Assembly: GCA_963749985.1 (NCBI GenBank) | Contig: CAVVOS010000006.1 | Coordinates: 429,590-493,589, forward strand | DNA from: an uncultured Acidobacteriaceae bacterium | Lineage (GTDB): Bacteria; Acidobacteriota; Terriglobia; Terriglobales; Acidobacteriaceae | Reading direction: 5' to 3' | Length of the DNA stretch: 64,000 bases | Part shown: positions 36,881 to 63,734 of the stretch, piece by piece | Position numbering within the stretch: the first letter of the stretch is position 1 | Layout: each line of letters begins with the position of its first letter | The notes under the pieces: generated by a model | Told to the model about the DNA's origin: nothing | The model's input: the letters and a program-made list of their open reading frames with translations, nothing else | The model's database searches: none | Program-made: the position numbers and the translations under genes

Positions 36881-37237
36881 TTAACCAGCTCGTCGCGCTG
36901 TGTGCTGAGACGCTGTGAAAATCGCACTCGGTTCACGCGCTTCTTTCAAAATGTCTTCGCAACGCTTAACGGGCACGATTTCACAGTCTGACAGCATTTC
37001 CAGCCAGAAGACAGTTTCGTCCGCCTCCTCTACCACCAGTCCGATTTTAGCAATCCACTCGGCACGCGATCTTCCTCTGCATGCAGCTCGATAGTTCGCC
37101 GCGACCGACGTGCCACAACGAAGCAACTGCTTGCCCACAACCTGCGCGTCGGCTGTGTGGGGCAGCGAGCGGTAAAGTCTAACAATCCGAATTGCAAAGG
37201 TCTTCGTCCGGTCACGCAAATCCTCGGGTGTCGACAT
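36881..37237 (-). CDS. Four-helix-bundle protein (23S rRNA intervening-sequence protein / Avd-like family), copy 1
   Basis: 118 aa. LRDRTKTFAIRIVRLYRSLPHTADAQVVGKQLLRCGTSVAANYRAACRGRSRAEWIAKIGLVVEEADETVFWLEML. Confidence 0.85.
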   Translation of the reverse strand: MSTPEDLRDRTKTFAIRIVRLYRSLPHTADAQVVGKQLLRCGTSVAANYRAACRGRSRAEWIAKIGLVVEEADETVFWLEMLSDCEIVPVKRCEDILKEAREPSAIFTASQHTARRAG

Positions 37238-37484: not shown

Positions 37485-37880
37485 ATGCCCGACAATTATT
37501 TCGCTGGCTACCTGCCGTTTCTGATCCACATTCTGCTGGCGGGCGGGATTGCGACTGCCATTATTGTGCTTTCCTGGCTGATCGGGCAGCGAAAACCGAC
37601 GCGGGCCAAGATGTCGGCGTATGAGTGCGGGATGACGCCGGTGGGCGACTCGCGAGGGCGCTTCTCGGTGCAGTTCTACATGGTAGCTATGCTGTTCATT
37701 CTGTTCGACGTAGAGGCGGTTTTCCTGTATCCCTGGGCGGTAATTCTGCGCGATCTGAAGCATTTCGGGCTGTGGGAGATGCTGGTGTACATCGGGATTG
37801 TTCTGGTGGGCTTCTTCTATATATGGAAGAAGGGCGTGCTGGAATGGGGCCCGGCGAAGGCGCGGAGGGGGGAACTCTGA
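37485..37880 (+). CDS. nuoA: NADH-quinone oxidoreductase subunit A
   Basis: Start at MPDNYFAGYLPFL. SAYECGM...FYMVAMLFILFDVEAVFLYPWA. Confidence 0.92.
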   Translation: MPDNYFAGYLPFLIHILLAGGIATAIIVLSWLIGQRKPTRAKMSAYECGMTPVGDSRGRFSVQFYMVAMLFILFDVEAVFLYPWAVILRDLKHFGLWEMLVYIGIVLVGFFYIWKKGVLEWGPAKARRGEL

Positions 37881-38377
37881 TGCCTTTGGCGCCCGCGATC
37901 ACGGATGTGGAGGAACTGAAGGGTCATCCGGCGGTGGCTTGTCTGCTGGCGTGGAATGCGGCGGCGGTGACGGGAGTGAAGTTCGATCGGGAAGAGATGA
38001 CGATCTGGGTTGATCGGGCAAACATTCGCGAGGCGTGCGCGATTCTGCGGGACGATGCGGAATGCGTGTTCAATTTCCTTTCCGACGTGACTTGTGTGGA
38101 CTGGTATCCGGCGGAGCCCAGGTTTGAAGTGGTCTACCACCTGCTTTCGATTCCCAAGAAAGAACGGGTACGGCTGAAAGTGCGGCTGGATAGTGCGAGT
38201 CCGGCGGTGGAGTCGCTGACCTCGATTTGGCCGGGGGCGAATTATTTCGAGCGCGAAGTGTTTGACCTGTTCGGGATCCGGTTTAACGGGCATCCTTATA
38301 TGAGGCGGATTCTGATGCCGGAGGATTGGGAAGGCCATCCGCTGCGGAAAGATTATCCGGTGGAGGGCTACCGCTAG
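37880..38377 (+). CDS. nuoC: NADH-quinone oxidoreductase subunit C
   Basis: ATG overlaps the nuoA stop (TGATG). WPGANYFEREVFDLFGIRFNGHP...DWEGHPLRKDYP. Confidence 0.93.
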   Translation: MPLAPAITDVEELKGHPAVACLLAWNAAAVTGVKFDREEMTIWVDRANIREACAILRDDAECVFNFLSDVTCVDWYPAEPRFEVVYHLLSIPKKERVRLKVRLDSASPAVESLTSIWPGANYFEREVFDLFGIRFNGHPYMRRILMPEDWEGHPLRKDYPVEGYR

Positions 38378-38383
38378 TTCGCT

Positions 38384-39589
38384 ATGGCCCATCTAGCTCC
38401 CACACCTGTTCTTGAGCCCGGCCAGGATCGGACCATGATCCTGAACATGGGGCCGCAGCATCCGTCGACGCACGGGGTGCTGCGGGTTCTGCTGGAAATT
38501 GATGGCGAAACCATTGTGCGGATCATGCCGGATATCGGCTTTCTGCATACGGGGATCGAGAAGACCTGCGAGGCCAAGTTTTATCAGCAAGTGGTGCCGC
38601 TGACCGACCGCATCGACTACCTGTGTCCGATGACCAACAATCTGTGCTACGTGCTGGCGGTAGAAAAGCTGCTGGGGCTGGAGATTCCGCCGAAGGCACA
38701 GTGGATGCGGGTGCTGATGAACGAGTTGACGAGGATCAACTCACACCTGGTGTGGCTGGGCACGCATGCGATGGATATTGGGGCGCTGACGGTGTTCTTG
38801 TATTGCTTCCGGGAGCGCGAAGAAGTGCTGAAGATGTTCGAGATGATCAGCGGACAGCGCATGATGACCTCGTACTTTCGAGTGGGAGGGATTGCGCTGG
38901 AGCCGCCGCTGGGATTCTTTGAGAGGGTGCGGGAGTTTGCGGGACGCTTTCCGGAGAAGGTGGATGAATACGAAAACCTGCTGACGGGAAATCCGATCTT
39001 TCTGATGCGCACCAAGGGCGTGGCCAAGCTGAGCGCGGAAGATGCGATTGCGTTGGGCGCGACTGGGCCGACGCTGCGCGGGAGCGGAGTGGACATCGAC
39101 CTGCGGCGGGATATGCCGTACTCGGGCTATGAGAACTTTAAGTTCAAAGTGCCGGTGGCGCAGGAAGGCGACGTTTTCGCGCGGTACATGTGCCGCGTGC
39201 TGGAGTTGCGGGAGTCGATTGAAATTGTGAAGCAGGCGCTGGATGGTATGCCGGAAGGGCCGATCAAGGCCGACGCTCCGGGCATTGTGCTGCCCCACCG
39301 GGAGAAGATGAAGACGCAGATGGAAGCGCTCATCTACCACTTTAAGATTATTACGGAAGGCTTTGCGGTGCCGGCGGGCGAGGTGTATCAGGCGGTGGAA
39401 TCGCCGCGCGGCGAGATGGGCTACTACATCGTGAGCGATGGGACGGCGAAGCCTTATCGAGTACACATGCGGGCCGCGTGCTTCGCGAATCTGCAGACGT
39501 TGGCCAAGATGTGCGAAGGCGGGCTGATTGCAGATGTGGTTGCGGCTATCGGATCGATTGATATCGTGCTGGGAGAGATCGACCGGTGA
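38384..39589 (+). CDS. nuoD: NADH-quinone oxidoreductase subunit D
   Basis: LNMGPQHPSTHGVLRVLLEIDGE...IDYLCPMTNN...SPRGEMGYYIVSDG. Confidence 0.96.
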   Translation: MAHLAPTPVLEPGQDRTMILNMGPQHPSTHGVLRVLLEIDGETIVRIMPDIGFLHTGIEKTCEAKFYQQVVPLTDRIDYLCPMTNNLCYVLAVEKLLGLEIPPKAQWMRVLMNELTRINSHLVWLGTHAMDIGALTVFLYCFREREEVLKMFEMISGQRMMTSYFRVGGIALEPPLGFFERVREFAGRFPEKVDEYENLLTGNPIFLMRTKGVAKLSAEDAIALGATGPTLRGSGVDIDLRRDMPYSGYENFKFKVPVAQEGDVFARYMCRVLELRESIEIVKQALDGMPEGPIKADAPGIVLPHREKMKTQMEALIYHFKIITEGFAVPAGEVYQAVESPRGEMGYYIVSDGTAKPYRVHMRAACFANLQTLAKMCEGGLIADVVAAIGSIDIVLGEIDR

Positions 39590-39633
39590 GGAATTTGTAA
39601 TTTTGTAATCGGGTAATTTGTAAATTGAAAAGC
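39590..39633. repeat. AT-rich heptad element, left arm of cassette 2
   Basis: GGAATTTGTAATTTTGTAATCGGGTAATTTGTAAATTGAAAAGC. Begins at the nuoD stop. Confidence 0.9.
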
Positions 39634-39646
39634 GGGCGGTGATCAG

Positions 39647-40006
39647 ATGTCCACCGGGCCCCAAGAATTGCGTGATCGAACGAAGGCTTTTGCTGTTCGA
39701 ATCGTGAGGCTTTATCGATCGCTGCCACACACCGCCGACTCGCAGGTGGTCGGCAAACAGTTGTTGCGCTGCGGCACCGCGGTTGCGGCAAATTATCGAG
39801 CAGCTTGTCGAGGACGTTCGCGCGCAGAATGGCTTGCCAAGATCGGTTTGGTGGTGGAAGAAGCGGATGAGACGGTGTTTCGGCTGGAAATGCTTTCGGA
39901 CTGCGATATCGTGAAGGGTGAGGGCTGCAAGGATATTTTGAAGGAAGCGCATGAGTTGAGTGCGATTTTTACCGCGTCTCAGCACACGGCGCGGAAGGCA
40001 AGTTGA
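39647..40006 (+). CDS. Four-helix-bundle protein (23S rRNA IVS / Avd-like family), copy 2
   Basis: 119 aa. Highly similar by eye (most positions identical) to copy 1: LRDRTKAFAVRIVRLYRSLPHTADSQVVGKQLLRCGTAVAANYRAACRGRSRAEWLAKIGLVVEEADETVF. Confidence 0.88.
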   Translation: MSTGPQELRDRTKAFAVRIVRLYRSLPHTADSQVVGKQLLRCGTAVAANYRAACRGRSRAEWLAKIGLVVEEADETVFRLEMLSDCDIVKGEGCKDILKEAHELSAIFTASQHTARKAS

Positions 40007-40035
40007 ATTACAAATTACCGATTACCGAATTACAA
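40005..40035. repeat. AT-rich heptad element, right arm of cassette 2 (inverted)
   Basis: GAATTACAAATTACCGATTACCGAATTACAA. Reverse-complement type of the left arm. It ends at the nuoE ATG. Confidence 0.9.
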
Positions 40036-40509
40036 ATGAGATTTTCGGACGAATTCGAGGCGCGGTTTGCGGAGATGGTGCCACATTATCCGACCAAGCG
40101 GTCGGCGCTGGTGCCGACTCTGCTTTATGCGCAGGATGAAGTTGGATTTTTGTCCGATGAGGTGATCGCGGAGCTGGCGGGGCGGCTTGAATTGACGGAA
40201 CTCGAAGTGCGGAACGTGATCAGCTATTACTCGATGCTGACCACGAAGCCGCGCGGGAAATTTAATGTGCAGGTTTGTACGAATATCAGTTGCCTGGTGC
40301 GGGGCGGCGAGGACATTTTGCGCCACTGCGCGAAGAAGTTGGGGGTTGGCCACAAAGGAACGACTCCTGACGGTATGTTTACGCTCGAAGAGGTGGAATG
40401 CATTGGGGCGTGCAGTTGGGCTCCGGCGGCGCAGGTGAACTACGATTTTCATGAGAACCTGAGCGTGGAGAAGATGGACAAGATCCTGGAGGACTATCGA
40501 CGTGGTTAA
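40036..40509 (+). CDS. nuoE: NADH-quinone oxidoreductase subunit E
   Basis: Start at MRFSDEFEARF (the earlier codons of the track ORF are repeat sequence). VCTNISCLVRGG...ECIGACSWAP (2Fe-2S ligands). Confidence 0.93.
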   Translation: MRFSDEFEARFAEMVPHYPTKRSALVPTLLYAQDEVGFLSDEVIAELAGRLELTELEVRNVISYYSMLTTKPRGKFNVQVCTNISCLVRGGEDILRHCAKKLGVGHKGTTPDGMFTLEEVECIGACSWAPAAQVNYDFHENLSVEKMDKILEDYRRG

Positions 40510-40615
40510 GGAATTTGTAATTTGGTAATCGGGTAATTTTGTAACTTAAGAACCGGACGGAGTCAGGGGCCGACGGGTTTCAAATTACAAATTTACCCGA
40601 TTACAAAATTACAAA
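40510..40615. repeat. Gene-less inverted pair of AT-rich heptad arms
   Basis: GGAATTTGTAATTTGGTAATCGGGTAATTTTGTAACTT (40510-40547), a 31-nt GC-rich centre, then TTCAAATTACAAATTTACCCGATTACAAAATTACAAA (40579-40615). This fills the nuoE-nuoF spacer exactly. Confidence 0.92.
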
Positions 40616-41929
40616 ATGGCAACTCTGGTTTCCCATCCCGATGAGGTAAAGGTCGTTAGCCGACGCTTTGGTCTGGGCGCGACGAACATCGATCGTTATC
40701 TCGAGCTGGACGGCTACAAAGCCGTGCAGAAGGCGCTTGGGATGGACGCGGACGGCATTATTAATGAGGTGAAGAATTCGGGACTGCGCGGGCGCGGCGG
40801 GGCCGGGTTTTCGACCGGGATGAAGTGGTCATTTGTACCGAAGCAATCGGCTAAGCCGAAGTATGTGCTGTGCAACGGCGACGAGAGCGAACCGGGCACT
40901 TGCAAAGATCGGCTGATTTTTGAGCAGGATCCGCACTCGGTGATCGAAGGAGTGATGATTGCCGCGCTGGCAGTGGGCGCAGCCAGCGGGTATATCTACA
41001 TTCGCGGCGAATATCGATATTTGTCGATCATCATGCAGAAGGCGATTCGCGAGGCCTATGCCAAGGGCTTTGTTGGCAAGAACATTTTTGGCAGCGGGCG
41101 CGATCTGGATATTTACTGGCACGGGGGAGCCGGGGCTTACGAAGTGGGCGAGGAATCGGCGTTAATGGAATCGCTCGAGGGCAAGCGCGGGATTCCGCGG
41201 ATTCGGCCACCGTTTCCGGCGGTGGTGGGACTGTGGGGCGGGCCTACCGTTATTAATAATGCGGAAACTTTGGCCAGCGTGCCGCACATTATTCTGGGGG
41301 GCGCGGATTGGTTTGCCAAGATTGGGACGCCGAAGAATGGCGGCACGCGGCTGTTCTGCTTGAGCGGCAATGTGGCGAAGCCTGGGGTTTACGAACTGCC
41401 GATGGGTTACAACTTGAAGAAGATGATTTACGAGGTGGGTGGCGGCATTCCGAACGGGCGCGCGCTGAAAGCCGTGGTGCCGGGCGGGGCGTCGTGTCCG
41501 TGCCTTACCGCCGACGAGGTCGATGTCAACATGGATTTCGATTCGCTGGCAAAGGCCGGTTCCATGCTGGGTTCCGGCGGCGTGGTGGTGATCGACGACA
41601 CGCAGTGCATTGTGAAGTTCGCGTTGCGGACGATGAAGTTCTATCAGCATGAAAGTTGCGGATGGTGCATTCCTTGCCGTGAAGGCACGGACTGGCTCAA
41701 GAAAACTCTGCTGCGAGTTCACTCCGGCGGCGGTGTGAAGAAAGACATCGACAACATGCAATACCTGGCGGAGAACATGCTGGGGAGGACGTTCTGTCCG
41801 CTGGGCGATGCGGCCGCGATGCCGACGATTGCGTTCGTGAAAAAATTCCGGAAGGAATTTGAGGATCATTTGGAAGGCAGGCCGTGCCCGTATGAAAAGG
41901 CTGGCATGGCGGAAGCGGTGTTGGCGTAG
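40616..41929 (+). CDS. nuoF: NADH-quinone oxidoreductase subunit F
   Basis: GLRGRGGAGFSTGMKWSF (FMN/NADH site). ESCGWCIPCREG (4Fe-4S N3). Confidence 0.97.
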   Translation: MATLVSHPDEVKVVSRRFGLGATNIDRYLELDGYKAVQKALGMDADGIINEVKNSGLRGRGGAGFSTGMKWSFVPKQSAKPKYVLCNGDESEPGTCKDRLIFEQDPHSVIEGVMIAALAVGAASGYIYIRGEYRYLSIIMQKAIREAYAKGFVGKNIFGSGRDLDIYWHGGAGAYEVGEESALMESLEGKRGIPRIRPPFPAVVGLWGGPTVINNAETLASVPHIILGGADWFAKIGTPKNGGTRLFCLSGNVAKPGVYELPMGYNLKKMIYEVGGGIPNGRALKAVVPGGASCPCLTADEVDVNMDFDSLAKAGSMLGSGGVVVIDDTQCIVKFALRTMKFYQHESCGWCIPCREGTDWLKKTLLRVHSGGGVKKDIDNMQYLAENMLGRTFCPLGDAAAMPTIAFVKKFRKEFEDHLEGRPCPYEKAGMAEAVLA

Positions 41930-41934
41930 CGAGA

Positions 41935-41975
41935 CGATTTAGTAATTGGGAAATTTAGTAATTGAGTAATTTGGT
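41935..41975. repeat. AT-rich heptad element, left arm of cassette 3
   Basis: GATTTAGTAATTGGGAAATTTAGTAATTGAGTAATTTGGTG. Confidence 0.9.
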
Positions 41976-41983
41976 GTTGCGGT

Positions 41984-42343
41984 ATGCGTTCGCGACCTGA
42001 AGAGCTTCGAGATCGTACCAAGGCTTTTGCTCTTCGTGTCATTCGGCTGTTTCGCTCGTTGCCGTATAAGACCGATACTCAAGTCTTAGGCAAACAGCTT
42101 TTGCGTTGCGGGACTTCGGTGGCGGCGAACTACCGGGCCGTTTGTCGCGCACGATCGAAAGCGGAGTTCGTAGCCCGCTTGGGAATTGTGGCGGAGGAGG
42201 CGGACGAAGCGGTGCTGTGGCTCGAATTGCTGATCGAATCAGGAATTCTAAAGTCGGAGATGACAGAAGAGATCTTGAAAGAGGCCCGAGAGCTAGCGGC
42301 AATACTGACTGCGTCTCGGGAAACGGCGAGGAAGGCGGCTTGA
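41984..42343 (+). CDS. Four-helix-bundle protein (23S rRNA IVS / Avd-like family), copy 3
   Basis: 119 aa. LRDRTKAFALRVIRLFRSLPYKTDTQVLGKQLLRCGTSVAANYRAVCRARSKAEFVARLGIVAEEADEAVLWLELL. Confidence 0.88.
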   Translation: MRSRPEELRDRTKAFALRVIRLFRSLPYKTDTQVLGKQLLRCGTSVAANYRAVCRARSKAEFVARLGIVAEEADEAVLWLELLIESGILKSEMTEEILKEARELAAILTASRETARKAA

Positions 42344-42345
42344 TG

Positions 42346-42387
42346 TCAAATTACTCAATTACTAAATTGCCCAATTACTAAATTCCC
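42346..42387. repeat. AT-rich heptad element, right arm of cassette 3 (inverted)
   Basis: TCAAATTACTCAATTACTAAATTGCCCAATTACTAAATTCCC. Ends at the nuoG ATG. Confidence 0.9.
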
Positions 42388-44745
42388 ATGGCTGACGTAA
42401 CACTCACTGTCGACGGCAAGAAGGTGACGGCTCCGGCCGGGACGCTCCTTATTGAGGCCTGCAAGAGCGCGGGCATCGAGGTGCCTTCGTTTTGCTATTA
42501 CCCCAACCTGTCGCTGCAGGGCGCTTGCCGCATGTGTTTGGTGAAGATTGAGAAGATGCCCAAGCTGCAGACCGCATGCACGACGGTGATCAGCGAAGGC
42601 ATGATCGTGACTTCCGACAGCGACGAGATCAAGCAGGCGCGGAAGGCGATGCTGGAGATGCTGCTGGGGAATCATCCCCTGGATTGTCCGGTGTGCGATG
42701 CAGGCGGCGAGTGCGAACTGCAGGACATGACGTTCAGTTACGGCGCCGCCGAGTCGAGATTCATGGAGGCGAAGAATCATAAGGATGAGCAGCAGTGGTC
42801 GCCGGTGGTGTTCTTCGACCGGCCGCGCTGCATTCTCTGCTACCGCTGCGTGCGGGTTTGCGGCGAAGGCATGGACGTTTGGGCTCTGGGGGTGCAGAAC
42901 CGCGGCGTGAGTTCGATCATCGCGCCGAATAAAGAGGATCACCTGGAGTGCGAAGAGTGCGGGATGTGCATCGACATCTGCCCGGTGGGCGCGCTGACTT
43001 CGGGCGCGTATCGCTACAAGACGCGGCCGTGGGAGATGAAGCATGTGGGGACGATCTGCACGCACTGTGGTGACGGCTGCAAGACCACGCTGGGCGTGCG
43101 CCGCGCCGATACGGGGATGGAGATTGTGCGAGGCGATAATCGCGATAAGAGCGGCACGAACGGAGATTTCCTGTGTATTAAGGGGCGGTACGGGTTTGAC
43201 TTTGCGAATCATGAAGAGCGGCTGACGCGGCCGCTGATTCGCGTGAACGGCAAGCTCACTCCGGCGACGTGGGAAGAAGCGTTTGCAGTGATCGGCAAGA
43301 AGTTTGCGGAAGTGCGCGACCGCGATGGCGGGGCGGCGATTGGGGTGATTGGTTCAACGCGCACGACAAACGAAGAAGCCTACCTGCTTTCCAAGTTTGC
43401 GCGAGTGGTGCTGAAGACTAATAATGTGGACCACCACCGTACCGCCGACTTCCCTGCCCTGGCGGCTGCGCTTCGCGGCAAGGCTGATGCGACGGCGAGC
43501 ATGGCGGACGTTTTTGCAGCTCCGGCCATTCTGCTGATTGGGAACGATCCGACGGAGCAGCATCCGCTGCTGGCCTGGCAGATTCGTAACAACGTGCGGC
43601 TTCACCGGGCGAAGCTTTACGTGATCAACTCGAAGTCGATCAAATTGCGGCGGCAGGCTGCGAGCTTTATGCAGATTCCCGCGGAAGCGGAAGGGAGAGT
43701 TGCGGCGTTCCTGGCGGGCGATGATTCGGCGGCGGATGCGCTGGTTAGTTCGTCCGCGGGTAATGACGTCTGGGTTGCGCTGCGTGACAAGCTGCGCGGG
43801 GAACAGAATCTGGTTATCGTTTTCGGTTCCGAAGTGCGGGGAGACGACCTGGCGAGTCTGGTGAAGTTCGGGTCAGAAATCTCCGGAGCCAAGTTTATTT
43901 GCCTGGCGGACTATGCCAATTCCCGTGGCGCGGCTGACATGGGGTTGTATCCCGACTTGCTGCCGGGATATCACCCGACGGCGGGGAACAGCGAGTTCCA
44001 CAAGGAATGGGGCGACGTGCCGCAGGGTGCGGGGCTTGATCTGGCGGGCATGGTTGAGGCGGGAAGATCGGGCGCGTTGAAGGCGCTCTACGTCGTCGGG
44101 TCGAATCCGGTGGGACGGTTGGAGATCGATCCGTTCGCATTCTCGAAGAGTTTCGTGGTGGTGCAGGACATGTTTCTGACGGAGACGGCGGTGGTGGCTG
44201 ACGTGGTGCTGCCGGCGGCGAATGCTTACGAGAAGTCAGGCACGTTCACCAACACTTGCGGGGACGTGCAACTGGTAAAGAAGGCCGGCGAAGTCACGGG
44301 CACGAAAACCGATTTCGAGATGATTGTGCGCATGGCCGATGCCATGGGTTTCGATGTGCGTGGACTCGTGCCCTTCGGCGGTGGAACGCACGCGGACATG
44401 GGCCAGTCTCGCGGGGCGCAGTCGGGCGAGGCGGATCGGCATGCGGTGTGGCTGGAGGCGCACGGGCTGGAGCCGAAGATGAGCCCGTTCGACCCCACGG
44501 CGATTCTGGATGAAATTCAGCGGCTGGTTCCGGGCTATGACGTGTCCCGCATGAATTTGCTGGCGGGCAACAGCGAGCATACGTCGCTGGAGAAAGCTGG
44601 GCCGGGGGTTGCGCACAGGGCGGAATCGATTGCTCCGGCGAACGATGATCTTTTTACTTCTGGAACGCTGGGACGGTATTCGCGAGCGCTGAAGGCAGTG
44701 ATGGAGAGTCACGAGGTGAAGCCGGCGGCGGTTGCGGCGGACTGA
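42388..44745 (+). CDS. nuoG: NADH-quinone oxidoreductase subunit G
   Basis: 2Fe-2S and 4Fe-4S motifs (FCYYPNLSLQGACRMCLV; HPLDCPVCDAGGECELQ; CILCYRCVRVC; CGMCIDICPVGAL) plus a molybdopterin-oxidoreductase-like domain. Confidence 0.96.
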   Translation: MADVTLTVDGKKVTAPAGTLLIEACKSAGIEVPSFCYYPNLSLQGACRMCLVKIEKMPKLQTACTTVISEGMIVTSDSDEIKQARKAMLEMLLGNHPLDCPVCDAGGECELQDMTFSYGAAESRFMEAKNHKDEQQWSPVVFFDRPRCILCYRCVRVCGEGMDVWALGVQNRGVSSIIAPNKEDHLECEECGMCIDICPVGALTSGAYRYKTRPWEMKHVGTICTHCGDGCKTTLGVRRADTGMEIVRGDNRDKSGTNGDFLCIKGRYGFDFANHEERLTRPLIRVNGKLTPATWEEAFAVIGKKFAEVRDRDGGAAIGVIGSTRTTNEEAYLLSKFARVVLKTNNVDHHRTADFPALAAALRGKADATASMADVFAAPAILLIGNDPTEQHPLLAWQIRNNVRLHRAKLYVINSKSIKLRRQAASFMQIPAEAEGRVAAFLAGDDSAADALVSSSAGNDVWVALRDKLRGEQNLVIVFGSEVRGDDLASLVKFGSEISGAKFICLADYANSRGAADMGLYPDLLPGYHPTAGNSEFHKEWGDVPQGAGLDLAGMVEAGRSGALKALYVVGSNPVGRLEIDPFAFSKSFVVVQDMFLTETAVVADVVLPAANAYEKSGTFTNTCGDVQLVKKAGEVTGTKTDFEMIVRMADAMGFDVRGLVPFGGGTHADMGQSRGAQSGEADRHAVWLEAHGLEPKMSPFDPTAILDEIQRLVPGYDVSRMNLLAGNSEHTSLEKAGPGVAHRAESIAPANDDLFTSGTLGRYSRALKAVMESHEVKPAAVAAD

Positions 44746-44748
44746 AAA

Positions 44749-44885
44749 GATTTAGTAATTGAGTAATTTTGTAATTGGGTAATTTGAAACCCAAAATCTG
44801 CGCGTGACGAAAGGAAGGTATAGGGAATTAAGGCGAAATCGTTTTTTCCATTACAAAATTACTAAATTACCCCAATTACCCAATC
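44749..44885. repeat. Gene-less inverted pair of AT-rich heptad arms with ~60-nt centre
   Basis: GATTTAGTAATTGAGTAATTTTGTAATTGGGTAATTTGA (44749-44787) ... CCATTACAAAATTACTAAATTACCCCAATTACCCAATC (44848-44885), in the nuoG-nuoH spacer. Confidence 0.92.
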
Positions 44886-44891
44886 AAACCA

Positions 44892-45929
44892 ATGCCGGTG
44901 CCTTTTTACATTTTCATCCTCGTGTCGGTGATCAAGTCGGTGATCGTGCTCGTGGTGCTGCTCACCGCGGTCGCATACACGGTGTGGCTGGAACGCAAAG
45001 TTGTGGGCCACATGCAGAATCGGTGGGGACCCTCGCGGGTGGGGCCGTTTGGGCTGCTGCAGCCGGCGGCCGACGGACTGAAGTTCCTGTTCAAAGAAGA
45101 TCTCACGCCGCCGCACGTTTACAAGCCGCTGTTTCTGGCTGCGCCAATGATGGCGCTGATCTTCGCGCTGACTTCGATCTCGGTAATCCCTTTTGGAAAT
45201 TCGATTACGATTGGCGGCTTAAACATTCCGCTGCAAATCACCGACGTGAACATTGGGCTGCTGCTGATTCTGGGCGTGACCTCGATGGGCGTGTATGGAG
45301 TGGCGCTGGCGGGGTGGTCGTCGAACAATAAATACTCGTTGCTGGGCGGACTGCGGGCGAGCGCGCAGATGATCAGCTACGAAATTGCGCTGGGACTGTC
45401 GCTGGTGGGGGTGTTAATTCAGTCGGGAAGCTTCAGCTTGCGCGCGATCGTCGATGCGCAGGGCGGACATTTCTGGGGATTCATTCCGCGCTGGAATATT
45501 ATTCACGGGCAGTTCATTGGTTTTTTTATTTACTTGATTGCGGCTTACGCGGAAACCAACCGTATTCCATTTGACCTGCCGGAGGCCGAAACCGAACTGG
45601 TGGCGGGATACCACACGGAATACAGTTCGATGAAGTTTGCCATGTTCTTCATGGCGGAATACGCCAACATGATTACGGTGGCTTGCGTGGCCACGCTGTT
45701 GTTTTTTGGAGGATGGCATGGGCCGCTGTTTGGGCCTCCGCTGCTGCAGGCGTTGCTGCCGGTATTCTGGTTTGCGGCAAAGATTTTCTGTTTTCTCTTT
45801 CTTTACATCTGGGTGCGCGGGACGTTGCCGCGCTTCCGTTACGACCAACTGATGGCTTTCGGCTGGAAGTTTCTGCTGCCGCTGGCAATTGCGAATCTGG
45901 TGGCGACGGCGATTGCCGTGGCCTGGTGA
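44892..45929 (+). CDS. nuoH: NADH-quinone oxidoreductase subunit H
   Basis: ERKVVGHMQNRWGPSRVGPFGLLQPAADGLKF...AETNRIPFDLPEAETELVAGYHTEYS. Confidence 0.96.
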   Translation: MPVPFYIFILVSVIKSVIVLVVLLTAVAYTVWLERKVVGHMQNRWGPSRVGPFGLLQPAADGLKFLFKEDLTPPHVYKPLFLAAPMMALIFALTSISVIPFGNSITIGGLNIPLQITDVNIGLLLILGVTSMGVYGVALAGWSSNNKYSLLGGLRASAQMISYEIALGLSLVGVLIQSGSFSLRAIVDAQGGHFWGFIPRWNIIHGQFIGFFIYLIAAYAETNRIPFDLPEAETELVAGYHTEYSSMKFAMFFMAEYANMITVACVATLLFFGGWHGPLFGPPLLQALLPVFWFAAKIFCFLFLYIWVRGTLPRFRYDQLMAFGWKFLLPLAIANLVATAIAVAW

Positions 45930-46107
45930 GGCAGTACTCAGTCCCGAGTACCTAGTGCCCAGTACGACCGGGTGCTTGATTACTGCCGGGTACTGGGTAC
46001 TGGGTACTTGCTATGAGACAGTTGCCAGTACCTAGTACCCAGTTGCCAGTAGAGGCACTGGGCTTTGGTTTACTTGCGACTGGGTACTGGCAACTGGGTA
46101 CTGATTC
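45930..46107. repeat. CCAGTAC/CCAGTTG-motif repeat block occupying the position where nuoI is expected
   Basis: GGGTACTGGGTACTGGGTACTTG...CAGTTGCCAGTACCTAGTACCCAGTTGCCAGTAG...ACTGGGTACTGGCAACTGGGTACTG. 178 bp with no ferredoxin-type ORF. Confidence 0.85.
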
Positions 46108-46626
46108 ATGAGTTTTCATCTCATTTTGTTTCTGGCTTTCGGGGCGGTTTGCGTGGGCGGGGCGGTCAACCTGCTGGCGCAGCGGCATCCCATTAACAGC
46201 GCGCTGTCGCTGATCGCGGTGATGGCTGCGCTGGCCGGCGAATATCTTTTGCTGGGCGCGGAGTTCGTGGCTGCGGTGCAGGTGATTGTGTATGCCGGCG
46301 CGATTATGGTGCTGTTCGTCTTTGTCATTATGCTGCTGAATGCGGGCGAAGAAGAGCGTACGAAAGGAAGCCGTGTCGCGATTCTGCTGGGTGTGCCGGG
46401 GATGCTGACGGGCAGCATACTGACGGCGTGGGTGGTGCTGCGGCATTCGGGGACTGAGGCTGTGCCGATCGGTGCATTGCCGGGACCTCCGAAAGAGATC
46501 GCGCAGCTTCTGTTTCATGAATTTCTGTTGCCGTTTGAAGTCACGTCGGTGTTAATCCTGATCGCCATCATGGGCGCCGTGGTGCTGGCGAGCAGGCCGG
46601 ACTCTGCGGCCGGGAAGGCGGACTGA
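46108..46626 (+). CDS. nuoJ: NADH-quinone oxidoreductase subunit J
   Basis: 172-aa membrane protein. [48 protein letters not shown]. Confidence 0.93.
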
Positions 46627-46940
46627 TGGTGCAATCGTATGTGCCGCTATCTTATTACTTGCTGCTGAGCGGGTTCCTGTTTGCCTGCGGCGTGGTGGGA
46701 TTTCTGATCAAGCGCAACATCATCACCATCTTCATGTCGATTGAGCTGATGTTGAACGGGGTGAATCTTTCCTTCGTGGCGTTCGCGGCGCACTGGCATG
46801 CGCTGGCGGGGCAGGTTTTCGTCTTCTTTGTGATGGTGGTGGCGGCAGCGGAGGCGGCGGTTGGGTTGGCGATCATCATCGCGGTTTACCGCACGCGCGA
46901 GACTTTGAACGTGGATCAGGTGAACCTGCTCAAGCTATGA
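46626..46940 (+). CDS. nuoK: NADH-quinone oxidoreductase subunit K
   Basis: TGATG overlap with nuo[19 protein letters not shown]...[17 protein letters not shown]. Confidence 0.95.
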
Positions 46941-48874
46941 ATTCATCCCTCAATCTTTGGCTGATCCCGATTCTGCCGCTGGCGGGGGCTGCGATCAACG
47001 GCTTTCTGGGCAAGAAGTCGTCGCGCCAGGCTGTGACGACTGTCGCGCTGTTCTTTAGCGGGGCGGCTTTCGCGATGGCGTTTTGGGTTGCGCTGCGCTT
47101 CTCGTCGTTGACGCTTCCCTACCACGAGTATCTGGCGCACTGGATTCGTTCGGGGAGTTTCAGCGCGGATTTCGCCTTCTATCTCGATCAGCTTTCGCTG
47201 GTGATGTTGCTGGTGGTGACCGGAGTCGGATTCCTGATTCACATCTACTCTGTGGGCTACATGTGGGACGACCCCAGCTACTATCGATTTTTCAGCTATC
47301 TGAACCTGTTCATGTTTTTCATGCTGACGCTGGTGCTGGCCAACAACTATCTGGTGATGTTTATCGGGTGGGAGGGCGTGGGACTGGCGTCGTATCTGCT
47401 GATCGGATTCTGGTTCACGAAAGACTCGGCGGCATCGGCGGGGAAAAAGGCGTTCATCGTAAACCGGATTGGGGATTTCGGGTTTCTGATTGCGCTTTTT
47501 CTGCTGATCAAGCATTTTAAGTCGCTGAACTTTGACCAGGTATTTCAGAGCATCTCTCCGATGAGCCCGGAAACCGCGGGCACCGGGCTGCTCACAGCGA
47601 TCGGCATTTTGCTGATGGTGGGGGCTTGCGGAAAGTCAGCGCAGATACCTTTATATATCTGGCTGCCGGACGCGATGGAAGGTCCAACGCCGGTTTCGGC
47701 ATTGATTCACGCGGCGACCATGGTGACGGCTGGCGTGTACATGGTTGCGCGCTCGCATGTGATCTTTGAGCGCGCGCCCACGGCATTGACCGTTGTGGCG
47801 ATCATCGGGACGCTGACCGCGTTCTTTGCCGCGACGATCGGCATCGCGCAAACCGATATTAAAAAGGTGCTGGCCTACTCGACCGTTTCGCAGCTCGGCT
47901 ACATGTTTGTGGCTTGCGGCGTGGGCGCGTTCTCGGCTGGGATTTTCCATTTGATGACACATGCCTTCTTCAAAGGACTGCTGTTCCTGGCGGCGGGATC
48001 GGTGATTCATGCGGTGGGCGGCGAGCAGGACATGCGCAAGATGGGCGGGCTGAAGTCGTTTATCCCGTGGACGTTTCTCACGATGGGGATCGCGACACTG
48101 GCGATCTCCGGGATCCCGCCGCTGGCGGGCTTCTGGAGCAAAGACGAAATTCTCTGGAAGGCTTACCAGGTCAGCTGGGTGTATTGGCTGATCGGACTGA
48201 TTACGGCATTCATCACGTCATTTTACATGTTCCGACTGTTGTACATGACGTTCTTCGGCGACTATCACGGGGTGCAGGTGGACACGCACGGGCACGGACA
48301 CGACGCCCATGGACATGGCGAACCACACGAGAGTCCGATGGTGATGCTGGTGCCCCTGATGATCCTGGCGGCGCTTTCGCTGGTGGGCGGGCTGGTGGGG
48401 ATCGGAAACCGCTTCGAACATTTTCTGGCACCAGTGTTTGGCGCGACGGACGCTGTGGAAGGGGCAAGTCACGGAACAGAGGTGCTGCTGATGGGCGTGT
48501 CCGTGGCAGTGGCGCTTTCGGGATGGTGGCTGGCATATCTTCTCTATTACAAGCGGCCGGAATTGCCGCAGAAGATTGCGGACGCGCTCGGCGGGTTCTA
48601 CCAGACGGTCGTGCACAAATACTACGTGGACGAAATCTACGCAGCGGTGTTCGTCAAGCCGCTGATCGATGGCTCGACGCGAATCCTTTGGCAGGACGTG
48701 GACCGGAAAATTATCGATGCGGCGGTGAATGACGCCGGCGACGGAGCACGCCATGTTTCCGACGAAGCGCGCCATATGCAATCCGGCAACATTCGCTCGT
48801 ATGCGGGCTGGATCGCGGCCGGGTCGGCGGTGGTGATTGCCTTCATGATCTGGATGTGGACGGGAACGCGATGA
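46937..48874 (+). CDS. nuoL: NADH-quinone oxidoreductase subunit L
   Basis: 645-aa antiporter-like subunit. ATGA overlap with nuo[16 protein letters not shown]...[36 protein letters not shown]. Confidence 0.96.
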
Positions 48875-50394
48875 ACGCCGACACCTGGAGCCCATACATT
48901 CTCTCGCTGGTGACGTTCGCTCCCTTGCTGGGCGGATTCCTGCTCGTATTTTTTCCCAGACGCGACCGCGACATCCGGGCTTTTGCGCTGGTCATCTCGT
49001 TGCTGACGTTTGTGTTGTCTCTGCATCTGCCAGTTTATTTCCATCGCGGACAGGCTGGTTTTCAGTATCAAATCGACAAGCAGTGGGTTTCGACTCCGAA
49101 TATTCACTACCACATGGGAGTCGACGGTATCTCAATGTGGCTGGTGGTGCTGACCACATTTCTTACGCCGCTGTGCGTGCTGATTTCGTGGAAGTCGATT
49201 CACGAGCGGGCGAAGGAATTTTTTATCCTGCTGCTGATTTTGGAGACGGCGCTGATCGGGGTTTTCACCTCGCTCGACCTGTTCCTCTTCTATTTCTTCT
49301 GGGAAGCGACGCTGATTCCGATGGCGTTGCTGATTGGGATTTTCGGTCACGGGCGCAAGGTGTATGCGGCGGTAAAGTTTTTCATGTACACCATGATCGG
49401 GTCGGTGTTCATGCTGGCGGCGATCCTGTGGCTTTACGCGCATACCGGCAGCTTCGACTTTGTGGTGATTCGGGAACAGATTGCGAGTGGCGCTGTGCCT
49501 GGGTTTCCAGCCGCGGCGCAGTGGTTGTTCCTTGGATTCTTTCTGGCGTTTGCGGTGAAGGTTCCGCTGTTTCCTTTTCATACGTGGTTGCCGGATGCGC
49601 ACGTGGAAGCGCCGACTGCCGGGTCCGTGCTGCTGGCGGGCGTCTTGCTCAAGATGGGGACGTATGGACTGCTGCGCTTTAATCTTGGGCTGTTTCCCGA
49701 GCAGTCGCGGCACAATGCTCCATGGGTGATGGCACTGGCGTTGATTGGGATCATCTACGGCGCGCTGGTTGCAATGGTGCAGCCGAACATGAAGAAGTTG
49801 ATTGCGTACTCATCGGTCAGCCATCTGGGATTCGTGGTGCTGGGGATCTTCAGCTTCACGCAGGCCGGACTGGACGGCGCGATGTTCGTGATGCTGGCGC
49901 ACGGGATTTCGACGGGCGGGCTATTCATGCTGGCGGGGATTCTGCATGAGCGCCGTCACACCTATGAGATTAGCGAGTTCGGCGGACTGGCTTCAACGAT
50001 GCCGGTGTACGCCGCGTCGTATCTGGTGATCGTGCTGGCATCGGCGGGGCTGCCTTTGTTGAACGGCTTCATTGGGGAATTTCTAGTGTTAAGCGGAGCG
50101 TTCCAAGACAAGGCGATCTACGGAATACTCGGAGCCACCGGCATTATTTGGAGCGCGATCTACTTGCTGTGGATGTATCAGCGAGTTTTCTACGGCAAGG
50201 TGACGCACTCGGTGAACAATTCTCTCAGCGATCTTTCGGGATTTGAGAAGCTGGCGATTTGGCCTTGCGCCGCGGCGGCGCTGGTGATGGGAATCGCGCC
50301 TATCTTGTGGCTGGGGGCGATTGGTCCGGCGGTTCACGCCGTGCTGAATCCCACTCCGTTCGTGCAAGTGGTCGGCCGGGTGGTGGGACAATGA
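48871..50394 (+). CDS. nuoM: NADH-quinone oxidoreductase subunit M
   Basis: ATGA overlap with the nuoL stop. FAVKVPLFPFHTWLPDAHVEAPTAGSVLLAGVLLKMGTYG. Confidence 0.96.
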   Translation: MNADTWSPYILSLVTFAPLLGGFLLVFFPRRDRDIRAFALVISLLTFVLSLHLPVYFHRGQAGFQYQIDKQWVSTPNIHYHMGVDGISMWLVVLTTFLTPLCVLISWKSIHERAKEFFILLLILETALIGVFTSLDLFLFYFFWEATLIPMALLIGIFGHGRKVYAAVKFFMYTMIGSVFMLAAILWLYAHTGSFDFVVIREQIASGAVPGFPAAAQWLFLGFFLAFAVKVPLFPFHTWLPDAHVEAPTAGSVLLAGVLLKMGTYGLLRFNLGLFPEQSRHNAPWVMALALIGIIYGALVAMVQPNMKKLIAYSSVSHLGFVVLGIFSFTQAGLDGAMFVMLAHGISTGGLFMLAGILHERRHTYEISEFGGLASTMPVYAASYLVIVLASAGLPLLNGFIGEFLVLSGAFQDKAIYGILGATGIIWSAIYLLWMYQRVFYGKVTHSVNNSLSDLSGFEKLAIWPCAAAALVMGIAPILWLGAIGPAVHAVLNPTPFVQVVGRVVGQ

Positions 50395-51974
50395 TCGTGA
50401 CTCGGATCGCGACGTTTATCCCAGCCTTATTGCTGACGCTGCCGCAAGGCGCGGATTACGTCCGCATCCTGCCCGAGATTGTGCTCTCGGTGTTTGGCAT
50501 GATCGTGATGGTGCTCGAACCTCTGATTGACGAGGAAAAGAGTCAGAAGGTTCTGGGGCTGATCGCACTGGTGGGCACTCTGGCGGGACTGGGGGCAACG
50601 TGGTTCATGGCACAGTCTCCGGGTCTGGCCTTCTGGAACATGGTGCAAGTGGACGAGTTCAGCGTTTTCTTCCATGCTCTGGTGATTGCGATTGCTGGCG
50701 TCGTCATCCTGATCTCTTACGAATACATGGCCGTGCAGAGGATCAGGGCTGGAGAATACTATGCGCTGATCCTTTTCGGCGTGGTTGGCATGGCGTTGAT
50801 GTCGTCGGCAATCGAACTGGTTCTGATTTTCATCGCGCTGGAGATTTCCTCGATCTCTTCGTATGTGTTGGCGGGATTCCGGCGGCATGAAGCCGCGAGC
50901 GCCGAATCTTCGCTGAAATACTTTTTGCTGGGTTCCTTCGCCACGGCGTTTTTTCTGTATGGAGTGGCGCTGATGTTTGGCGCCACGGGCTCGACGAATA
51001 TCGACCTGATCAGCCAGACATTACGGTCGGGACCGATTCCATTGCTCGCATTCGTGGCGGTGGCGTTCATGTTTGTGGGCCTGGGATTTAAGGTGGGGGC
51101 GGCTCCATTCCACAGCTGGACGCCGGACGTCTACGAAGGAGCGCCTGCGCCGATTGTGGGCTTGATGTCGACCGCACCGAAGGCAGCGGCGTTTGCAGTC
51201 TTGTTGCGCGTGGTTTTCGTGATCAACGTGCATGCCATCTTCTGGGTCATTTGGGTTGCGGCAGCGCTATCCATGACTTTGGGCAACGTGAGCGCTTTGG
51301 TGCAAAATAATGTGAAGCGCCTGCTGGCTTACTCTTCGATCGCGCACGCGGGCTATCTTCTGGTGGCTTTCGCGGCCGCGCCGGGCATGGGAATCTCTGC
51401 GGCGATGTTCTACACCGCAGCCTACGCAGCGATGAACCTGGGCGCGTTTGCGGTGGTGAGCCATTTCGCCAATGCCGGCGAACGCTACGTGACACTGGAG
51501 GACTACGAAGGCCTGGGCCGGAGTTCTCCACTGCTGGCGGCGACGCTCACCATCTTTCTGCTCTCGCTGATCGGTATCCCGATGACCGGCGGCTTCTTTG
51601 CCAAGTTCTATGTGTTCAGCGCGGCGGTGAAAGCTAATCTGATCTGGCTCACGATCATCGGCGTCCTCAACAGCGGAGTGGGGGCGTACTACTACCTGCG
51701 CATCATTGTGATGATGTACATGCGCGAATCGCGGAAGGAAGTTCCGGTAATGCGCGTCCCCTTTGCGCTTCGGCTGGCGCTGGCAGTCTGCCTGACCGCG
51801 ACCATTTATCTCGGAATATTTCCCAACGGCGTTTTGCAGTATGCGCAGGACTCGGCGCGACAACTCGTTCAGCCGGCGCTGCCCGAAACGTTTTCTACGG
51901 CGCCCGTCTCGGCGCTGCCGAGACATTCCAGAGAGTCAGGGAGGCTTGTGGAAATCGTGCAAACTGGCATTTGA
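50391..51974 (+). CDS. nuoN: NADH-quinone oxidoreductase subunit N
   Basis: ATGA overlap with the nuoM stop. Start MIVTRIATFIP. GFKVGAAPFHSWTPDVYEGAPAPIVGLMSTAPKAAAF. ~45-aa non-membrane C-terminal tail. Confidence 0.94.
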   Translation: MIVTRIATFIPALLLTLPQGADYVRILPEIVLSVFGMIVMVLEPLIDEEKSQKVLGLIALVGTLAGLGATWFMAQSPGLAFWNMVQVDEFSVFFHALVIAIAGVVILISYEYMAVQRIRAGEYYALILFGVVGMALMSSAIELVLIFIALEISSISSYVLAGFRRHEAASAESSLKYFLLGSFATAFFLYGVALMFGATGSTNIDLISQTLRSGPIPLLAFVAVAFMFVGLGFKVGAAPFHSWTPDVYEGAPAPIVGLMSTAPKAAAFAVLLRVVFVINVHAIFWVIWVAAALSMTLGNVSALVQNNVKRLLAYSSIAHAGYLLVAFAAAPGMGISAAMFYTAAYAAMNLGAFAVVSHFANAGERYVTLEDYEGLGRSSPLLAATLTIFLLSLIGIPMTGGFFAKFYVFSAAVKANLIWLTIIGVLNSGVGAYYYLRIIVMMYMRESRKEVPVMRVPFALRLALAVCLTATIYLGIFPNGVLQYAQDSARQLVQPALPETFSTAPVSALPRHSRESGRLVEIVQTGI

Positions 51975-52222: not shown

Positions 52223-52449
52223 CCGAGTCGGCTGCGCAAGCAACAATGCGGGATCTTAGCGGGAGCTTTTTTATGACGCGATTTACCTCGTTTACCGGGC
52301 AGTTTCGCTACTACTGGTTTACCAGAGTAGCGGCTGCGGCGGAACTTGCGGGGAGATCGAGTGAGCCATGATCGACTAGATTCAAGCAAGTTTCAGCCGG
52401 GGGCCGCGATTCTAGATCGCGGCCCTTGTTTTTTGGAGAGGAAAGGGCT

Positions 52450-52483
52450 TTCACCACGGAGACACAGAGGCACGGAGAAAATC
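52450..52483. repeat. REP (CACCACRGAGRCACAGAG type)
   Basis: TTCACCACGGAGACACAGAGGCACGGAGAAAATC. Confidence 0.8.
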
Positions 52484-52516
52484 GTAAGAAACACAGACTC
52501 ATTCAGGAGAGAGCCA

Positions 52517-53530
52517 ATGATCGTCAATATGTCCGAGAAGGCAAGCGAACAGGAGATTGCGCACGTAATCGAGCGCATTCGCGAGGCAGGCTACCAGCCG
52601 CACGTCACGCGGGGAGTGGAGCGCACCATCGTGGCTGCCGTGGGGAACGGGCGGCGTCACGAAATCGAGGCGCTGCTGGTGGCGCCCGGGGTGGAGAATG
52701 TGGTCGCGATCGCGCAGCCTTTCAAACTGGTGAGCCGGCAGGTGAAGCCGGAGCGATCCGTGGTGAACGTGGGCGGAGTCTTGATCGGCGGACCGGGAGT
52801 TGTGATCATTGCCGGACCGTGCTCGGTGGAATCTCGGGAACAGTTGTTGAGCACAGCGCATGCCGTGAAGCGGGCGGGGGCCACGATGCTTCGCGGCGGG
52901 GCCTACAAGCCGCGGACTTCTCCTTATGACTTTCAGGGGCTTGGCCTGGAGGCGCTGAAGATTTTGCGCGAAGCTCGGGAACAGTCCGGTCTGCCGGTGG
53001 TGACGGAGGTGATGAGCACGGAAGATGTGGACGTGATTTGCGAGCATGTGGACATGTTGCAGGTAGGGGCGCGGAACATGCAGAACTTCGCGCTGTTGCG
53101 GCGACTGGCAACGGTGAGCAAGCCGGTACTTTTGAAGCGTGGGCCCTCGGCGACGGTGAAGGAGTGGCTGCTCGCAGCGGAGTATTTGCTTTCGGGAGGA
53201 AACTCGCAGGTTGTGCTGTGCGAGCGTGGCATCAAGACATTCGAAACGGAAATGCGCAATACCTTCGATCTGGCGGCGGTGGCGTTGGCCCGCGATCTTT
53301 CTCATCTGCCCGTGATCGCCGATCCGTCGCATGGGACGGGCAAACAAAGTCTGATTGCGGCGGTCTCTCGCGCGGCTGTAGCCGTGGGAGCGGATGGATT
53401 GATCATCGAGGTTCACCCTTGTCCGGAGCGGGCACTTTCCGACGGGGCGCAGTCTCTCGATTTCGCCGGATTCGAGAAGGTGATGAAGGCTATTGCGGAA
53501 CCGCTGCGGCGGGCCGCAATTCCGGTGTGA
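52517..53530 (+). CDS. 3-deoxy-7-phosphoheptulonate (DAHP) synthase, type I-beta with N-terminal ferredoxin-like regulatory domain
   Basis: Start MIVNMSEK with AGGAGA upstream. [15 protein letters not shown]...[20 protein letters not shown]...[12 protein letters not shown]...ADPSHGTG. Confidence 0.92.
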
Positions 53531-62794: not shown

Positions 62795-63734
62795 GGAAAT
62801 TGAGAACCCTCTCCACGGCGCGTTCATCCGGCTCGAAAGAATAGCGATAACAAGGAACGGAATCGGCAACTCGCTCCAGAAAACTCAAGGCGGAGTCAAT
62901 GTATTCGTGACGGTGAAATGGAACGAAGGCGCGAGCAAAAAGTTCGGCGACCACCTGGCTGCGGGTGAGGCGAGTGATCAGGTTGCCGTGGCCGTGTTCG
63001 AGAACGAAGATGCGGTGCAGCGGGGCGCGCTGCGGTAGAGCGAAACATCCCTCACCATGCCACGGAGTTCCGTACATGAAGACTTGGTTGTCGCTTTCAC
63101 GGACAATGATGCGGTCGTCGCTCAGGATTTCTACTTTGTGAAGAGAAGTCCACAGCCGCGCCGTCGTACTCTTCCCCGCCCCGGAGTGACCGACGAACAA
63201 GTTGGTCGCGCCGTCGGGGCCGACGATGCCGACACCATGTAATTCAATAGCCCGCTCTTGCGTGAGGCGGTGCATGATAAGGAGCTCGTCGAGGGGATAC
63301 TCCAGAGGAATGGCGGTGTCGCAACTCTCGAAACCTTCTCGACTTAGGAGCAACGAGGCGCGGCGGAATCGCTCATCGACCAGAAGCCGCTTATAGGAAG
63401 CACCGTCAAGACTCGCAACGCTGAAATCGAATTGAAATCCGGCACTCTTCTCGTACAAGCGCCAGACGCATCCCGAATCGAAAAGCTGGCGCTGCCGCGG
63501 CTTGGGAAGCCTATCGACCCATTTTACCTGGATGCTAATATCGCCCCTGCCGGACTCGATCCGAAACGGCTCCAGGGTTGGATCTAAATTGAGATCTGAA
63601 GCGTGGTCGCCAGCCACTTCTACCGTGACTCCACCCACATGGAAACCGGTGTAGCATGCCGCGCCAAAGGCTGGGGCACACGACACCGCAGGCGCTGAAT
63701 CGTCAACTATCGCGACCCCTAACCTAGCATTCAC
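62787..63734 (-). CDS. HPr kinase/phosphorylase C-terminal-domain-like P-loop protein (HprK-related kinase)
   Basis: ELHGVGIVGPDGATNLFVGHSGAGKSTTARLWTSLHKVEILSDDRIIV parallels the HprK/P P-loop and following DD motif. Start uncertain: GTG 63734 (8 nt after the peptide stop) or TTG 63818 (track). Confidence 0.7.
   Translation of the reverse strand: MNARLGVAIVDDSAPAVSCAPAFGAACYTGFHVGGVTVEVAGDHASDLNLDPTLEPFRIESGRGDISIQVKWVDRLPKPRQRQLFDSGCVWRLYEKSAGFQFDFSVASLDGASYKRLLVDERFRRASLLLSREGFESCDTAIPLEYPLDELLIMHRLTQERAIELHGVGIVGPDGATNLFVGHSGAGKSTTARLWTSLHKVEILSDDRIIVRESDNQVFMYGTPWHGEGCFALPQRAPLHRIFVLEHGHGNLITRLTRSQVVAELFARAFVPFHRHEYIDSALSFLERVADSVPCYRYSFEPDERAVERVLNFRE

Follow-up and report, generated by a model that had tools for sequence, protein, structure and literature searches.

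A complex I operon without nuoB and nuoI in a Terriglobales genome, probably completed by unlinked single genes

How can a bacterium build respiratory complex I from an operon that lacks the genes for two of its iron-sulfur (Fe-S) subunits? The question is raised by a nuo operon at positions 37485-51974 of a stretch of 64,000 nucleotides (nt), hereafter the window, which corresponds to G000:C6:429590-493589 (G, C, L and f mark our handles for genomes, contigs, loci and families). The genome, G000, is 5.37 Mb in 15 contigs, with a completeness score of 100%. In the original prediction, the absence of nuoB and nuoI from this operon was explained either by a supply of both subunits from another locus, namely a second nuo cluster, or by a non-canonical complex. 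Our analysis indicates that the operon very probably belongs to an ordinary NADH:quinone oxidoreductase, with NuoB and NuoI supplied by unlinked single genes. Behind this reading stand observations on which genes are present and in what order, on their conservation and Fe-S ligands, and on trees and co-occurrence patterns that match. The window would hold the main nuo operon, with 12 of the 14 core subunits of a standard complex I. NuoB_a (cluster N2) and NuoI_a (clusters N6a/N6b) would be made separately from unlinked genes and would join NuoC, NuoD and NuoH in a normal Q-module. A further pair, nuoB_b and nuoI_b, would serve a second cluster, nuoA-C-D-H-J-K-L-M-N.

The operon genes were called by Pfam and NCBIfam scans of the plus-strand open reading frames (ORFs) between 37443 and 51974. 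They confirmed the predicted order nuoA-C-D-E-F-G-H-J-K-L-M-N, all on the plus strand, with the following features:

37485-37880, plus strand: nuoA (PF00507, E 8.5e-39); the ORF is open from 37443, likely start ATG at 37485
37880-38377, plus strand: nuoC (PF00329, E 6e-51; TIGR01961 155 bits, cut-off 122)
38384-39589, plus strand: nuoD (PF00346, E 5.6e-119; TIGR01962 569 bits, cut-off 459)
39647-40006, plus strand: four-helix-bundle gene between nuoD and nuoE, not a complex I subunit (PF05635, E 1e-11)
40003-40509, plus strand: nuoE (PF01257, E 1.4e-49); start TTG at 40003, alternative in-frame ATG 11 codons inward
40616-41929, plus strand: nuoF, the subunit binding flavin mononucleotide (FMN) and NADH (PF01512, PF10589, SLBB domains)
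41984-42343, plus strand: second PF05635 gene, between nuoF and nuoG (E 1.8e-16)
42388-44745, plus strand: nuoG (PF13510, PF10588, PF22117, PF00384; TIGR01973 482 bits, cut-off 470)
44892-45929, plus strand: nuoH (PF00146, E 8.6e-127)
45930-46107: nuoH-nuoJ spacer of 178 bp, with GGGTACT-type heptad repeats and inverted arms; the site of nuoI in canonical operons
46108-46626, plus strand: nuoJ (PF00499, E 1e-36)
46626-46940, plus strand: nuoK (PF00420, E 1.8e-30)
46937-48874, plus strand: nuoL (PF00361, PF00662, PF01010)
48856-50394, plus strand: nuoM (PF00361, PF01059); start GTG at 48856, alternative ATG at 48871
50391-51974, plus strand: nuoN (PF00361, E 1.3e-72); likely start ATG at 50391, in an ATGA overlap with the nuoM stop

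Neither missing gene is found at its canonical place, which is between nuoA and nuoC for nuoB, and between nuoH and nuoJ for nuoI. The stop codon of nuoA (TGA, 37878-37880) shares a base with the ATG of nuoC (37880-37882), and this TGATG overlap, already described in the original prediction, leaves no room for nuoB. The nuoH-nuoJ spacer has exactly the predicted length and consists of repeats only, with no ferredoxin-type ORF. Its heptads, of the GGGTACT and CAGTTGC types, form tandem and inverted arrays with arms up to 39 nt long, and are scattered over dozens of sites in the genome. No relic of nuoI was found in the spacer. The absence of NuoB-like and NuoI-like products from the window also stood: whole-genome searches with PF01058 (NuoB) and TIGR01971 (NuoI) gave no match above cut-off inside it, and the single weak TIGR01971 match there (24.7 bits) falls on the ferredoxin domain of NuoG. 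The rest of the enzyme appears regular. The NADH-dehydrogenase module is present, as shown by PF01257 in NuoE, PF01512 and PF10589 in NuoF, and the NuoG domains together with a TIGR01973 score above cut-off. NuoC, NuoD, NuoG and NuoH are of canonical length and domain make-up, and none of them carries a substitute Fe-S domain.

A search of the whole genome for NuoB, NuoI and a second nuo cluster, as proposed with the original prediction, returned two Nuo-type NuoB genes, two NuoI genes and one further cluster. With NuoB_a and NuoI_a added to the window operon, this genome encodes the full set of 14 core subunits, NuoA-N. None of the four single genes adjoins a nuo gene:

C6:370401-370958: nuoB_a, 185 amino acids (aa), on the window's contig, about 96 kb upstream of nuoA
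C2:562904-563485: nuoB_b, 193 aa
C12, about 182950-183478: nuoI_a, 176 aa
C6:72108-72569: nuoI_b, 153 aa

The second cluster, located by a tblastn search of the genome with the Nuo proteins of the window, lies on the minus strand of the same contig (C6:654919-665370) and has the order nuoA-C-D-H-J-K-L-M-N, without an NADH module. It runs straight into atpZ (PF09527), atpI (PF03899), atpB (PF00119) and atpE (PF00137) on the same strand (C6:652767-665370 with the atp genes included), and the whole is situated about 160 kb downstream of the window. As nuoB and nuoI are absent there too, this cluster was ruled out as the source of the missing subunits. Supply from another locus, as originally suggested, would therefore hold for four dispersed single genes, but not for a second nuo cluster. 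The number of NuoB and of NuoI genes, two each, equals the number of nuo clusters. A complex I-like module devoid of Fe-S subunits, whether membrane-arm-only or redox-less, would have no NuoB or NuoI partner in the genome, and here there are two of each.

The unlinked genes are intact and look functional, as judged from their products. All four score above the NCBIfam cut-offs (TIGR01957 and NF005012 for NuoB, TIGR01971 for NuoI), and NuoI_a also exceeds that of the equivalog model NF004537. Among solved structures, NuoB_a is best matched by Thermus thermophilus Nqo6 (2fug_6, E 1.7e-69) and NuoI_a by T. thermophilus Nqo9 (E 4.4e-41). Aligned to Nqo6, NuoB_a retains the N2 ligand motifs (CCxxE ... 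GxC ... CPP) as GLACCAIEMM, MGACATSGG and VPGCPPRPE, and the same motifs can be read in NuoB_b. Both CxxCxxCxxxCP motifs, for N6a and N6b, are present in NuoI_a (CVACFLCAANCP and CIFCGYCVEACP, aligned to Nqo9) and in NuoI_b (CIACDLCALACP and CMFCGLCEDACP, read in the sequence). The ratio of nonsynonymous to synonymous substitution rates (dN/dS), computed within the genus for three of the four genes, was 0.013-0.039 for nuoB_a, about 0.03 for nuoB_b and 0.045-0.08 for nuoI_b, and these three are under strong purifying selection. The two NuoB proteins are 61-63% identical to each other, and the two NuoI proteins about 32%.

Four further PF01058 matches in the genome were rejected as NuoB on account of their long open frames and, for two of them, their NuoE/F/G-like neighbours; they are probably hydrogenase small subunits. 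At G000:C4:10795-14034 and G000:C9:403313-408080, NuoE/F/G-like genes are followed by a PF01058 small-subunit gene, and both clusters probably encode NAD-linked [NiFe] hydrogenases. The two other long-frame PF01058 genes are on C12 and C13.

Which NuoB and which NuoI belong to which cluster? For NuoB, the B_a clade, from the window's family (f1) and a second family of the same order (f56), is sister to the in-cluster NuoB of family f29, with a support of 92 in the Shimodaira-Hasegawa-like approximate likelihood ratio test (SH-aLRT). These f29 clusters have the order A-B-C-D-E-F-G-H-J-K-L-M, with nuoB still between nuoA and nuoC. A NuoD phylogeny, also proposed with the original prediction, places the window's NuoD as sister to the NuoD of these same f29 clusters (support 94). 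B_b is nested among the in-cluster NuoB of 11-subunit clusters, A-B-C-D-H-I-J-K-L-M-N, and the NuoD tree has the same shape as the NuoB tree. The NuoI tree places I_b (95) with NuoI proteins still encoded inside the second cluster, those of G075, a member of the window's family with an in-cluster NuoI 82% identical to I_b, and of G136, from the same order. I_a forms a clade of its own (99) and falls on the same side of the tree as NuoI from 14-subunit clusters.

Co-occurrence paints a similar picture. Six relatives that possess the window-type cluster only (G138, G139, G141, G143, G099 and G014; 95-100% complete) each have one NuoD of the window type (D1), one B_a-type NuoB and one I_a-type NuoI, and the 1.5 kb around their nuoB and nuoI genes is free of nuo genes. 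Moreover, the assignment of B_b and I_b to the second cluster leaves B_a and I_a for the window operon. The three lines, i.e. trees, co-occurrence and exclusion, agree in suggesting that NuoB_a and NuoI_a pair with the window operon, and NuoB_b and NuoI_b with the second cluster.

The layout is not a peculiarity of one genome. The window's NuoD is 86-96% identical to that of 80 loci from metagenome-assembled genomes (MAGs) labelled Candidatus Sulfotelmatobacter, Acidobacteriaceae, Terriglobales or Terriglobia. The genome is that of a soil bacterium of the Acidobacteriota, order Terriglobales, close to Candidatus Sulfotelmatobacter. The synteny comparison among relatives that had been proposed found the order A-C-D-E-F-G-H-J... 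in 80 of 80 related loci, and at E<=1e-5 not one of them gave a match to NuoB or NuoI. In these loci nuoA and nuoC are separated by a median of 3 nt, and nuoH and nuoJ by a median of 92 nt (range 19-501 nt); even nuoH-nuoJ gaps of 440-501 nt hold no NuoI match. The same order was observed in the sampled genomes G087, G099, G075, G111 and G014. Since all 80 loci share the order, the absence of nuoB and nuoI is not an assembly accident. The orphan genes are equally consistent in their separation: neither B_a nor B_b orthologues are linked to nuo genes in the two families sampled from the order, and no nuo gene was found within 1.5 kb of any fetched B_a, B_b, I_a or genus I_b locus (24 relatives from the genus and f56).

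Synteny around the unlinked genes is only partly conserved and is of little added weight. Citrate synthase adjoins nuoB_a in five of the 13 other genus loci, and the gene 3' of nuoI_b is kept in most. A gene for a Rieske [2Fe-2S] protein (117 aa, G000:C2:563514-563867) is located 28 bp 3' of nuoB_b on the same strand; it stays next to nuoB_b in six of seven sampled genus loci and may be co-transcribed with it.

A survey across the phylum, covering 40 nuo clusters from about 30 genomes, uncovered every intermediate arrangement:

Most families: canonical order A-B-C-D...H-I-J
f29: nuoB in place and nuoI gone, with an unlinked I_a-type gene elsewhere (52% identical)
G075 and G136, second cluster: nuoB gone and nuoI in place
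f29: an A-B pair separate from C-D-H-I-J-K-L-M-N; f37 has the same A/B-less cluster
f34, all three genomes (G044, G073, G110): nuoB and nuoI both gone, with an adjacent B-I pair megabases away

The most economical history would have nuoI_a depart from the window operon before nuoB_a; nuoI_a is unlinked in every sampled lineage with the window cluster type, and nuoB_a is still in place in f29. For the second cluster, the order was presumably the reverse, first nuoB_b and then nuoI_b, the latter being unlinked in 15 of 15 sampled members of the window's genus. The split of nuoB and nuoI from the operon is old. In the f34 loci (L201, at G073:C1:840519-843947, L208 and L209), nuoB and nuoI are neighbors on the same strand. 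In G073 they are 1 nt apart, and just upstream there is an 87-aa ORF that is ferredoxin-like by its cysteine motifs only.

The original prediction regarded the loss of exactly the two small Fe-S subunits of the Q-module as non-random. This is partly borne out, as nuoB and/or nuoI left nuo clusters several times. Nevertheless, other parts of the nuo loci were rearranged too: nuoN stands before nuoA, A-I clusters are followed by no J-N match, E-F is displaced, and A-B has moved. Such fluidity across the phylum tempers the argument. In G113, the in-cluster nuoB (L207, G113:C7:765886-769116, about 1124-1770) is split into ORFs of 90 and 122 aa, with a break where roughly three residues are missing. 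This may be a single frameshift or a long-read sequencing error, and given the latter option we draw no conclusion about a pseudogene caught in the act.

Are the orphan genes equipped for their own expression? The upstream DNA of orthologues was aligned, and the boxes described here were seen by alignment only. For nuoB_a, a TA[AG]AAT box precedes the ATG by 6-9 nt in 14 of 14 loci, and for nuoI_b a TGnTATnCT box precedes it by 7-9 nt in 16 of 16 loci; both boxes are thus conserved across the sampled members of the genus. For nuoI_a, TATAAT or TATACT is found at a similar distance before the start in G000 and several relatives. Boxes resembling a -10 element 6-9 nt from the ATG leave no space for a ribosome-binding site, hence the transcripts look leaderless. 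This suggests that nuoB_a and nuoI_b have their own promoters and leaderless monocistronic mRNAs. Repeated departures from both cluster types, the f34 pair and the promoter-like boxes could be taken as signs that selection favors independent control of the two Fe-S subunits of the Q-module, for example at an assembly checkpoint that could sense Fe-S supply or oxygen. We consider this adaptive reading rather doubtful; the alternative is neutral operon decay.

Several observations weigh against completion of the window operon by NuoB_a and NuoI_a. The stem branch of NuoI_a is long (1.14 substitutions per site) and has no in-cluster relative in the sampled genomes, so that the pairing of NuoI_a is based on co-occurrence and exclusion. 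The long stem may reflect faster evolution after leaving the operon, or a different origin. Co-occurrence also has exceptions: G128 (98% complete, 8 contigs) possesses both NuoD types and no B_b match, and G125 has B_b and I_b and no NuoD of the second-cluster type (D2). Both are most likely assembly gaps. A scan for the sigma-70 consensus (with terminator) found no plus-strand promoter before nuoA, nuoB_a or nuoI_a. Finally, the expression and physical co-assembly of these subunits are deduced from sequence.

Three other explanations have to be weighed against completion by a matching orphan pair. The strongest of them, though still improbable, is a promiscuous pool, in which either NuoB and either NuoI assembles with either scaffold, and unlinking allows mixing of modules or joint regulation of the Fe-S subunits for both isoenzymes. 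The physical independence of the four genes from both clusters and the 61-63% identity of B_a and B_b would fit such a pool, and so would G128, which has both clusters and a B_a match only. Shared use is, however, difficult to reconcile with the concordant NuoB, NuoD and NuoI trees, which keep the two sets apart, and with relatives that hold I_b inside the second cluster and B_a inside operons of the window type. Genomes with a single cluster retain B_a and I_a, the matching pair, and no others, and the identity of NuoI_a and NuoI_b is only about 32%.

A non-canonical complex without N2 and N6a/b, in which electrons would travel from NuoG to quinone off the usual chain, was the other option of the original prediction. 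Its one argument is that the operon lacks nuoB and nuoI, and we regard this option as very unlikely. Intact nuoB and nuoI genes exist in numbers that match the clusters, the three tested are under purifying selection, and the trees match. In relatives with only this cluster type, a single B_a and a single I_a are always kept; in a sister lineage B_a has not left its place between nuoA and nuoC, and the canonical NuoC, NuoD, NuoG and NuoH offer no replacement Fe-S domain. Least credible of all, to the point of being negligible, is an assembly or binning artefact by which nuoB and nuoI were lost. The genome is indeed a draft of 15 contigs, but the nuoA stop overlaps the nuoC start, and the same order is repeated in 80 independent assemblies, contigs over 1 Mb included, as well as in the five sampled genomes named above. 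Completion of the window operon by NuoB_a and NuoI_a remains the explanation that we favor.

Besides the two PF05635 genes within the operon, on which the original prediction is silent, a third is located just upstream of it, on the minus strand (36881-37237). PF05635 is the "23S rRNA intervening sequence protein" family, a four-helix bundle. The three genes are 64-85% identical to one another. Their presence varies among the 80 related loci, about half of which have none, and this suggests mobile cassettes. Downstream of the operon, a 3074-codon ORF on the minus strand (53645-62869) comes right after the gene for 3-deoxy-D-arabino-heptulosonate 7-phosphate (DAHP) synthase (52346-53530).

For the biology of complex I these results change little, as the enzyme is almost certainly a standard one with scattered genes. 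They matter more for annotation. Automated pathway calls that demand a contiguous nuoA-N will wrongly score the complex I of Terriglobales as incomplete. The proposed pairing would assign the lone genes, B_a and I_a to the 14-subunit operon, and B_b and I_b to the 11-subunit operon joined to atpZIBE. In evolutionary terms, the intermediates in Acidobacteriota illustrate cleanly, on a small scale, how an operon breaks up step by step. They also lead to an idea that can be tested, namely that each of the two small Fe-S subunits is made from a leaderless transcript of its own.

The layout without nuoB and nuoI is lineage-wide and has already been documented: Hausmann et al. (10.1101/197269) described nuoACDHJKLMN operons, one of them with nuoEFG, in the peatland Acidobacteria MAGs SbA1-7, and counted nuoB and nuoI as present outside the operons. 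Candidatus Sulfotelmatobacter and SbA1-7 are of the same lineage as our genome and share its gene order, with one operon with nuoEFG, one without, and nuoB and nuoI elsewhere. Nothing essential differs, although that study gave no reason for the unlinking, no pairing and no history. It reportedly appeared later in ISME J 2018. New here are the assignment of each orphan to its operon, a stepwise history whose intermediates can still be seen in living lineages, the nuoB-nuoI pair of f34, and the promoter-like boxes.

Compared with the canonical nuoA-N of Escherichia coli and the nqo1-14 of T. thermophilus, the 14 core subunits, the Fe-S ligands and the NuoE/F/G module are alike, whereas here two genes are unlinked, and two PF05635 genes and repeat-filled spacers interrupt the operon. 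Scattered complex I loci, including a lone nuoB, are also known from NUO-2 of Nitrospina gracilis, which consists of nuoACHIJKLMN, nuoEGD, and lone nuoB2 and nuoF2 (PMC3578206). In our genome, by contrast, exactly nuoB and nuoI are gone, from both clusters, and the catalytic cofactor motifs are unaltered, unlike those of NUO-2. Another split complex I gene set is formed by the ndh genes of cyanobacteria and plastids. The closest parallel within the phylum comes from f34, whose cluster A-C-D-H-J-K-L-M-N is likewise of the 11-subunit type without nuoB and nuoI; there, the two genes sit side by side, whereas the window's genome keeps four separate single genes.

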